Positions 21,360-25,736 are shown, counted from the stretch's first letter. The stretch is 64,000 nucleotides of DNA from Alphaproteobacteria bacterium (GCA_965228895.1 OZ245842.1:2112001-2176000), one strand, 5' to 3'. Made by a program: numbers and translations. Notes: generated from the letters alone by a model not told the origin.

Positions 21360-24628
<3,269 letters not shown>

Positions 24629-24720: not shown

Positions 24721-25257
24721 CTACTCCGCCGCCGAAATATGTACCGCCGCGGGGGTTATTTCCAGACTGACGGGCGTTTCGCCGCCGATGATGTCGAGCA
24801 CCGGGCAGTGACGATCAACCGTCGCTTTCAGTTCTTCCAGTCGTTCAATCGGCGCTGGGCTATCGATGTCCACGCTGCCACGAATGGCGGTGAAACCCGG
24901 TCGGACGTCCTCGTTTGCGGCGGTAAAGCCGCTCAAGTCGATATCGCCCTCCAGGTGCACCGACACGCCATCCAGCGGGATGCCCAGGCGATCGGCGTAG
25001 AGTCGGTAGGTGATTTCCTGGCATGACGCCAACGAGGCCAGGATCAGCTCGACGGGGTTCGGGCCCTTGTCCGTGCCGCCGAGCGCCTCGGGTTCGTCGA
25101 CATCCAGGAAGAAGTTCCGCGTATTGACCCTGCTGTGCAGGCCCGCGATTTGGCGACTGGTCGCGCTGAATGTCGCTTGTGCCGCTTCGTTGTCGGCAAC
25201 AAAGGTGTCGCGCAGACCGTTGAAGCCATCGCGATAGGCAAATTGTTCCGTGGTCAT
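24721..25257 (-). CDS. OsmC/Ohr family protein
   Basis: DEPEALGGTDKGPNPVELILASLASC and HCPV (both conserved Cys); RBS AAGGAGA before ATG 25257. Confidence 0.9.
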   Translation of the reverse strand: MTTEQFAYRDGFNGLRDTFVADNEAAQATFSATSRQIAGLHSRVNTRNFFLDVDEPEALGGTDKGPNPVELILASLASCQEITYRLYADRLGIPLDGVSVHLEGDIDLSGFTAANEDVRPGFTAIRGSVDIDSPAPIERLEELKATVDRHCPVLDIIGGETPVSLEITPAAVHISAAE

Positions 25258-25310
25258 CGTCTGTCTCCTTGAACCACCGTTATCAAACGGGCCCACGGGA
25301 GACTTCCCGT

Positions 25311-25361
25311 GGCGCTTTAGCGGTTGGCGACGCGGACGCAAGCTGCCCCTCAAATCCCGCG
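25311..25361 (-). ncRNA. SAM-II-class riboswitch aptamer (gene-proximal copy)
   Basis: Minus strand CGCGG-GAUUUGA-GGGGCAGCUUGC-GU-CCGCG-N9-GCUAAAGCGCC: P1, L1 U-tract and pseudoknot P2. Confidence 0.75.
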
Positions 25362-25383
25362 GGTCCCTTCGGGGAACCAAGCC

Positions 25384-25420
25384 AACAAAAAAACCGCCTC
25401 AGCGTGGTGCCGGGCGGTTT
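25384..25420 (-). terminator. Intrinsic terminator between the two aptamers
   Basis: AAACCGCC-CGGC / GCUG-A-GGCGG followed by UUUUUUUGUU. Confidence 0.85.
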
Positions 25421-25432
25421 GAAACGTGGTCC

Positions 25433-25488
25433 GGCGCTTTAGCTGGTATTTTTAGAGCGCCCCGCAAGCTGACAATCAAATCGGCGCT
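25433..25488 (-). ncRNA. SAM-II (SAM-alpha) riboswitch aptamer (promoter-proximal copy)
   Basis: Minus strand AGCGCC-GAUUUGAUUGUCAGCUUGC-GG-GGCGCU-CUAAAAAUACCA-GCUAAAGCG fits the SAM-II consensus; upstream of a methionine synthesis gene. Confidence 0.9.
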
Positions 25489-25736
25489 GATGAATCTTAA
25501 ATCACTATCGCTTGCGGGTTGTCAAGCGGTTCCCGCCGGCGGCATTCGCACAGGTGACATGGCCACCTTGCCGTGATGGCAGGGCAGACAGCGCTCACGG
25601 ATGTGTCGAAGTACGTTGACCTTGCGCCCGTCACCTCTAAGAATCCCAATCGCTGGGCGGACACACCCCCCTTTCGATGGTGTCGCCTAAGCGGGAACCA
25701 AGTGAACGTCACGAGCGACAGAGGAGAGAGCTCACA

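Follow-up and report, generated by a model that had tools for sequence, protein, structure and literature searches.

A conserved tandem SAM-II leader with a structurally variant second aptamer ahead of metY in an alphaproteobacterium

Described SAM-II systems and the metY leader

SAM-II riboswitches were described by Corbino et al. (2005) with the elements P1 and P2, an upstream near-consensus promoter and frequent intrinsic terminators (PMC1273637, the part used here). In the sections consulted of the regulon survey by Leyn et al. (2014), metY is the core SAM_alpha target gene, and the family is given only for Rhizobiales and Rhodobacterales (PMC4239095). Sherlock et al. (2022, RNA Biol) counted 44 SAM-II doublets, "many" of them mixed, i.e., a terminator followed by RBS control (PMC9481103, available portion). 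A SAM-II/SAM-V tandem of 'Ca. Pelagibacter' combines termination as the first step with translation as the second, both responding to one ligand, according to the consulted text of PMC9481103 and PMC11508383.

We analyzed a window, i.e., the whole stretch of 64,000 nt from Alphaproteobacteria bacterium (GCA_965228895.1 OZ245842.1:2112001-2176000), in which all leader features lie on the minus strand. Like the tandems in the consulted part of PMC9481103, the leader has a first aptamer before an intrinsic terminator and a second one with an anti-RBS; this terminator-then-RBS architecture of tandem SAM-II is already published there and is not new. No second-aptamer subtype with a P0 hairpin and an inserted P3 hairpin is described in that portion of the paper. 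With RF00521/SAM_alpha, as presented in the available part of PMC1273637, the leader shares P1 plus an H-type pseudoknot, the core motifs, the near-consensus promoter upstream and the presence of an intrinsic terminator, and with the regulon of PMC4239095 it shares metY as a target. It differs from RF00521 in that both copies score below 36 bits, the second aptamer has no A-rich L3 and carries P0 and P3, and the covarying 3' strand of its P2a stands after P3, not directly after AAAG. The second element of the 'Ca. Pelagibacter' tandem is SAM-V, whereas here it matches SAM_alpha. The SAM-II riboswitches of S. meliloti metZ (terminator) and metA (SD-based platform) are likewise alphaproteobacterial (Scheuer et al. 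2022, PMC9373788); they are, however, single switches of separate genes, the metA SD lies within the pseudoknot, and no P3-type platform is described in the text of that paper used here. A literature search, with supplements outside its scope, yielded no description of a P0/P3-type SAM-II variant, which is not proof of its absence. Overall, the leader represents a genuine and conserved SAM-II tandem whose architecture is of a known kind, with a structurally variant second aptamer that standard models miss.

The leader comprises 270 nt from a -35-like TTGACA to the ATG at 25257 and contains, in this order, aptamer 1, a hairpin followed by seven U, P0, aptamer 2 including P3, a small local hairpin and the SD GGAGAC (Table 1). 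The TTGACA is accompanied by no clear -10 box. A TTGAC(A/G/C) box with equal spacing upstream of aptamer 1 was found in most tandem loci of relatives. A simple consensus-based promoter and terminator scan of the window missed both the leader promoter and the terminator; the latter was missed probably owing to a bulge in its stem and a stacked inner helix.

Table 1. Features of the leader and the operon behind it (positions counted in the window, 5' to 3' on the minus strand for RNA features)
Feature	Position	Strand	Evidence
-35-like TTGACA, leader promoter	25525-25520	-	sequence reading
Aptamer 1, SAM-II class, canonical topology	25488-25431	-	RF00521 34.3 bits
Aptamer 1 P1, AGCGCC with GGCGCU	25488-25483 with 25461-25456	-	
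Aptamer 1 L1, GAUUUGA	25482-25476	-	
Aptamer 1 P2a, adjacent, weak	25475-25471 with 25435-25431	-	
Aptamer 1 P2b	25469-25466 with 25439-25436	-	
Antiterminator strand, predicted (end of P2b, L2, 3' strand of P1)	25466-25458 with 25416-25408	-	RNAfold
Aptamer 1 L3, A-rich	25455-25444	-	
Aptamer 1 GCUAAAG	25443-25437	-	
Intrinsic terminator, stem; seven U	25420-25409 with 25403-25391; 25393-25387	-	RNAfold -18.7 kcal/mol
P0 hairpin, abutting aptamer 2 P1	25378-25373 with 25367-25362	-	minimum-energy folds
Aptamer 2, SAM-II variant	25361-25289	-	RF00521 24.5 bits; model R1 98.2 bits
Aptamer 2 P1, CGCGG with CCGCG	25361-25357 with 25335-25331	-	
Aptamer 2 L1, GAUUUGA	25356-25350	-	
Aptamer 2 loop strand, GGGC	25348-25345	-	
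Aptamer 2 P2b	25343-25340 with 25317-25314	-	
Aptamer 2 L3, UCGCCAACC, no A-run	25330-25322	-	
Aptamer 2 GCUAAAG	25321-25315	-	
Aptamer 2 inserted hairpin P3	25312-25305 with 25300-25293	-	
Anti-SD GUCUCC, loop and start of P3 3' arm	25303-25298	-	exact complement of 25268-25263
Aptamer 2 distal P2a strand, GCCC, after P3	25292-25289	-	
Shine-Dalgarno GGAGAC of the first gene	25268-25263	-	ATG 25257-25255
OsmC-like gene, 178 aa, first in operon	24721-25257	-	Pfam OsmC 82.1 bits
metY, O-acetylhomoserine sulfhydrylase, 454 aa	23339-24703	-	TIGR01326 620 bits (cut-off 495)
hemB, porphobilinogen synthase, directly downstream of metY	22318-23334	-	Pfam ALAD 446 bits

The first protein of the operon also matches NCBIfam OsmC_like_Se with 80.8 bits, under the cut-off of 95, and the MetY protein also matches Pfam Cys_Met_Meta_PP. 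In five relatives that have no metY at the locus, the aptamer-2 leader precedes hemB. In two genera of the family, an OsmC-like gene separates the riboswitch from metY, and in a different family an OsmC-like gene lies directly 3' of an aptamer-2-type element (these observations come from the window's own gene, L011, L012, L014 and L067); this suggests a functional link of the OsmC-like gene with sulfhydrylation. In a third genus (L015), the first gene encodes a small sulfite-reductase ferredoxin-like half-domain protein instead.

Two aptamers of the SAM-II class

A search of 501 nt with RF00521 gave full-length matches to both aptamers: aptamer 1 with an E-value of 4.3e-6 and aptamer 2 with 0.0019 (1.1e-5 and 0.005, respectively, in the whole genome). 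RF00521 was the only SAM family among the 11 matches listed for this stretch at E up to 10. The gathering score of the family is 36 bits, and an Rfam scan of the window at the gathering threshold reported two tRNAs only and neither of the aptamers. Orthologues of aptamer 1 in three relatives exceed the cut-off (L018, 41.8; L015, 39.3; and L019, 36.9 bits), as does one orthologue of aptamer 2 (L027, 39.3 bits). The original prediction of two SAM-II-class aptamers in one leader, the second possibly a variant that covariance models miss, is thus borne out, and so are the shared GAUUUGA and the different P1 stems, which read back on the minus strand as predicted.

The core motifs of SAM-II (GAUUUGA, the GCUUGC segment and GCUAAAG) hold ligand-contacting bases in the crystal structures. 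All three are present in both window aptamers, GAUUUGA as L1, and none of them varies among 22 aptamer-2 orthologues or among 25 aptamer-1-type sequences. P2b (CUU with AAG) can pair in 100% of the cells of the aptamer-2 type and in 97% of those of the aptamer-1 type, but it never varies and is therefore neutral as evidence on this pairing. The element lies in the 5' leader of methionine/sulfur genes, here metY, as is characteristic of SAM-II. By homology and structure we assign both aptamers to the SAM-II class, not as Rfam-annotated members. In its anatomy, two riboswitches with a terminator and then an anti-RBS, the leader corresponds to a bi-mechanism tandem, presumably with the same ligand for both parts.

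RF00521 was found in five places of the whole genome, including both leader aptamers. Two others are a canonical SAM-II with a terminator ahead of a Cys_Met_Meta_PP gene (77.6 bits; G000:C1:3652966-3653045, L001) and an aptamer-1-like copy, also with a terminator, ahead of a siroheme-synthase-like ORF (31.5 bits; G000:C1:5303225-5303302, L003); the fifth place scores 17.8 bits. On the plus strand of the window, opposite to aptamer 1, positions 25388-25529 match Rfam RF02424 (Burkholderia sRNA Bp2_Cand287) with 28 bits. In reverse complement, the consensus of RF02424 looks like a SAM-II aptamer with its terminator, which raises the possibility that the strand assigned to this family is wrong.

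Aptamer 1 has the canonical topology. In 25 sequences of its type, P1 is paired in 96% of cells, with changes on both sides at three of six pairs and a closing pair that is A-U in 12, C-G in 7 and G-C in 2 of them; the adjacent P2a is paired in 76%, with both-sided changes at three of four pairs. P2a of the window copy is weak (C-G, a mismatch, G-C and two G-U). The type is characterized by a near-fixed P1 (GCGCC with GGCGC), an A-rich L3 and a pseudoknot 3' strand directly after AAAG. In a relative (L016:1501-1556, plus strand), GAUUUGA, GCUUGC and GCUAAAG of aptamer 1 are changed to GGUUCGA, GCUCGC and GCCGAAG, respectively, which could be a swap of a U.A-U base triple to C.G-C or decay.

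As predicted, aptamer 2 does not have the usual A-rich L3: no A-run is found in its L3, which is conserved as UCACCAA in relatives. This feature, present in aptamer 1, is obligatory for the class only by assumption. The arms of P0 compensate each other in alignments of relatives inspected by eye (GGUCC/GGACC, GAUCC/GGAUC, GGCUC/GAGCC). Among 70 distinct aptamer-2-type sequences, P1 is 96.4% paired and mostly invariant, and P3 has both-sided changes at seven of eight pairs.

In 71 distinct sequences, covariation links the loop strand that precedes AGCUU to the four bases 3' of P3; at the third position, G-C was found in 43, A-U in 15 and U-A in one. In the count over 70 sequences, the corresponding columns 20-135 show G-C 43, A-U 14, G-U 3, U-A 1 and other combinations 9. 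The loop/post-P3 cells are paired in 235 of 284 cases, compared with a shuffle mean of 218.6 (sd 2.6) and none of 2000 shuffles as high, and the pair counts of P3 and P2a on the aptamer-2 alignment exceed those of 500 of 500 shuffles; these figures overstate the significance because the sequences are related. The alignment was fitted to R1, a covariance model built on aptamer 2, for P1 and P3 and not for the pseudoknot pairs. These comparative data support the helices P0, P1 and P3 and the loop/post-P3 pairing.

The adjacent G-C-C after AAAG, which allows two to three pairs, is invariant; its third position has A opposite C in 23 of 71 sequences and is never compensated. We dropped this adjacent strand as the sole P2a of aptamer 2, since the loop covaries with the post-P3 strand instead. 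The covariation supports the post-P3 strand as the probable pseudoknot partner, with P3 closed; the adjacent partner, being invariant, is neutral in this comparison. The overlap of the hairpin base with the P2 strand, as originally proposed, is therefore half of the picture: the adjacent bases are shared with the hairpin, but it is the strand beyond P3 that covaries with the loop.

In another relative, aptamer 2 before hemB (L064:1501-1575, minus strand) has several core substitutions and scores 50.2 bits with R1, compared with at least 94 bits in most orthologues; it is probably a decaying copy.

Expression platforms and switching direction

An intrinsic terminator with a seven-U tail lies between the aptamers, as predicted, and each of the order's 18 tandem loci has a hairpin with a T-run at the equivalent place. 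The original prediction proposed a possible antiterminator of five pairs, GCCGG with CCGGC of the terminator. Folding prefers a longer pairing of eight pairs, which RNAfold predicted in the minimum-energy form of nascent transcripts with their 3' ends at 25405, 25400 and 25396; the logic is the same, as SAM binding would remove either pairing. Conservation across families extends to both the terminator-arm CGCCC and the aptamer strand that pairs with it, which fits a strand that would be obliged to pair in two ways. Switches of the aptamer-1 type also have a small hairpin, which shares its 5' side with the adjacent P2a strand and reaches into the terminator with its 3' side; we read this as possibly the same positional logic as in aptamer 2 on a smaller scale.

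The hairpin P3 holds GUCUCC, the exact complement of the SD, as stated in the original prediction. P3 is SD-like in its 5' arm, and its loop and 3' arm constitute the anti-SD. The 3' half of P3 can form six pairs with the RBS region in the window, seven to eight in sister genera and at least 11 in L066, L068 and L192. The P3 loop and the bases after GGAG change together, being GUC/GAC in the window and GAUC/GAUC in the sister genera. In a duplex-rank test, about a dozen lineages placed ahead of P3 arms taken from elsewhere (rank of at most 6 of 59).

This evidence bears on the explanation that aptamer 2 binds SAM but works here without SD pairing, the six-pair match being incidental to a GGAG-containing hairpin and control depending instead on mRNA stability, on Rho or on steric effects that the folded pseudoknot exerts. 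In its favor, the window's own P3 half ranks only 47 of 59 in the duplex test, its best duplex not being the one with the SD, and the SD lies about 20 nt beyond aptamer 2 with a small hairpin between them. According to the consulted part of PMC9373788, the SAM-II riboswitches of S. meliloti likewise influence the stability of RNA and exert effects at a distance. We nevertheless consider this explanation doubtful, given the concerted changes of P3 loop and post-GGAG bases between genera and the far longer anti-SD matches in other lineages.

Nested folding of the window's leader gave -26.7 kcal/mol with P3 and -20.8 kcal/mol without it. By nested folding alone, SD occlusion is not predicted in the window, and the SD stays accessible except where P3 is weakened. 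The five bases that follow AAA also form a two-pair extension and the base of P3; when they were blocked, the fold of the window's leader flipped to the SD-sequestered form, the predicted unpaired probability of the SD falling from 0.73 to 0.42. In L041, L066, L068 and L192, the SD is predicted to be closed without any ligand. A mimic of the P3 pseudoknot raised the predicted SD accessibility in these four and in L122.

In the order of genome G176, whose members are Alphaproteobacteria with small genomes of ~2 Mb, aptamer-2-type elements (L216-L220, L223, L224, L228, L232 and others) have a long P3 and are followed by an intrinsic terminator, the 5' arm of which contains the 3' arm of P3 plus the post-P3 strand. 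Since the 3' half of P3 enters either an SD sequestor or a terminator, P3 would be the "ON" hairpin everywhere and its 3' half a part of the "OFF" structure.

The reading we prefer, with a probability of roughly 65%, is that the leader carries two SAM-II-class riboswitches that work independently and each cause repression when SAM is high, by the terminator first and by control of the SD second. Riboswitch 1 would act during transcription, with high SAM leading to repression. In the absence of SAM, the 5' arm of the terminator would be occupied by the 3' strand of P1 and/or the tail of P2a. Binding of SAM would hold these antiterminator strands within P1 and the pseudoknot, leaving the terminator (25420-25391 plus U7) to form and to end transcription. 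Riboswitch 2 would act on the full-length mRNA, on which a closed P3 would leave the SD free. SAM, which we infer to be the ligand here as well, would stabilize the canonical pseudoknot, using the bases right after AAAG (25315-25311); this pseudoknot would strip the base of the extended P3 and so free the anti-SD to pair with the SD. In the ligand-free form, the loop/post-P3 pairing would serve as a lock on the ON state, as would be required in lineages whose sequestor, if no lock existed, would exceed P3 in stability. For riboswitch 2, we regard the OFF logic as highly probable; it is argued strongly by the genes that follow aptamer-2-type elements elsewhere, namely cysH, cysG, metQ-like, metN-like, OsmC and MetY/Z. 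The coupling by which the canonical pseudoknot strips the base of P3 is, in our estimation, an even bet.

The covariation can also be read in the opposite direction: aptamer 2 would be a ligand-activated ON element for SAM or a related compound, the P3-containing pseudoknot being the bound form and the SD being freed, and the tandem would be a band-pass or two-input gate instead of two OFF switches. The loop covaries with the post-P3 strand, a pairing compatible only with a closed P3; if this pseudoknot is the SAM-bound fold, P3 is protected and the SD freed, which makes an ON switch. The OFF structures use the 3' arm of P3 and in some lineages the post-P3 strand too (the SD sequestor and the terminator of the G176 order), and under the standard reading, in which the aptamer fold and the OFF structure are mutually exclusive, an ON switch is predicted for both the window and that order. 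The rise of SD accessibility with the pseudoknot mimic points the same way. Against this stand the regulated genes, which serve sulfur assimilation and methionine acquisition and are expected to be SAM-repressed, and the unchanged core motifs; moreover, an ON switch behind an upstream OFF switch with the same ligand would leave the operon silent at low SAM. We consider an ON element, and with it the gate, unlikely and retain double repression as the preferred reading.

Distribution, subtypes and biological meaning

The whole tandem of 200 nt aligns in 15 of 41 related genomes, the window's own included, and aptamer 2 alone aligns in further species with 83-89% identity (DNA search). Conservation of aptamer 2 in relatives, by which the original prediction was to be judged, was evident: the aptamer-2 type was detected with R1 in 30 of 33 genomes of the order, one strong copy in each. 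In 18 of these 30, an aptamer-1-like core with a T-run lies 70-110 nt upstream. That one of the two aptamers is a decaying relic without function is very improbable: both are under the Rfam cut-off, degraded copies occur in relatives (aptamer 1 in L016, aptamer 2 in L064), and aptamer 1 is missing from 12 of the 30 genomes, but all core motifs are intact in both window aptamers, the window copies are 95% identical to same-genus copies over ~280 nt, and the terminator and the SD platform are intact.

Across the class, R1 matched 31 of 151 genomes (one genome per family, E up to 0.01), and the tandem was also found in several other alphaproteobacterial families. A 14-base pattern scan of genome contigs was unspecific, with at least 120 stretches; R1 gave 31 matches among 100 of these loci, and the search covered seven further loci as well. 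The matches include Azospirillum, Niveispirillum, Bosea, Microvirga, Chelatococcus, Reyranella, Nisaea, Tistlia and Tagaea, and the element is thus alphaproteobacterial. Each subtype also occurs alone, in this genome and in others. The duplicated aptamer of the original proposal is therefore not a recent duplication; aptamers 1 and 2 are two old subtypes.

In other families, single aptamer-2-type elements (L065, L070, L073, L079-L081, L083-L086) are followed by very short ORFs upstream of cysH, cysG, metQ-like and metN-like genes. Many of these ORFs have Cys or Met codons near their end, and they are possibly leader peptides that would add the sensing of these codons to that of SAM.

In one sister genus (L009:1283-1378, minus strand; L010, L013, L016, L017, L021-L026), the SD after aptamer 2 opens a short ORF of 37-106 aa as called. 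Its sequence is not conserved, and it ends in a block conserved at the nucleotide level, in which a closing helix of CCCGGCAG with CUGCCGGG surrounds a GGCGGCGGAG core; the block is followed by a stop codon, a terminator-like hairpin and then metY or hemB. The block looks like an RNA element because the reading frame shifts between species within it. It matched no Rfam family (the best was ar35, with 21.8 bits against a cut-off of 45) and was absent from the genome to which the window belongs, where a search that allowed two mismatches gave 0 matches.

The comparative data on aptamer 2 are compatible with either switch direction, and its type is a compact natural case of a hairpin arm that can choose between a partner within the aptamer region and one in the RBS or a terminator. 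It is a long shot that the aptamer-2 type is a distinct, widespread alphaproteobacterial SAM-II subclass with a two-pseudoknot toggle, or one that is ligand-activated or differently liganded. If the toggle is real, one pseudoknot would be the ligand-free ON lock and the other the SAM-bound OFF form; if, more radically, activation or another ligand is real, the tandem would be a two-input or band-pass gate on sulfur assimilation and not a double OFF switch. Either would be new. As the aptamer-2 type is present in 31 of 151 sampled families and the switches score below the Rfam cut-off, the SAM control of alphaproteobacterial sulfur metabolism is probably under-annotated.
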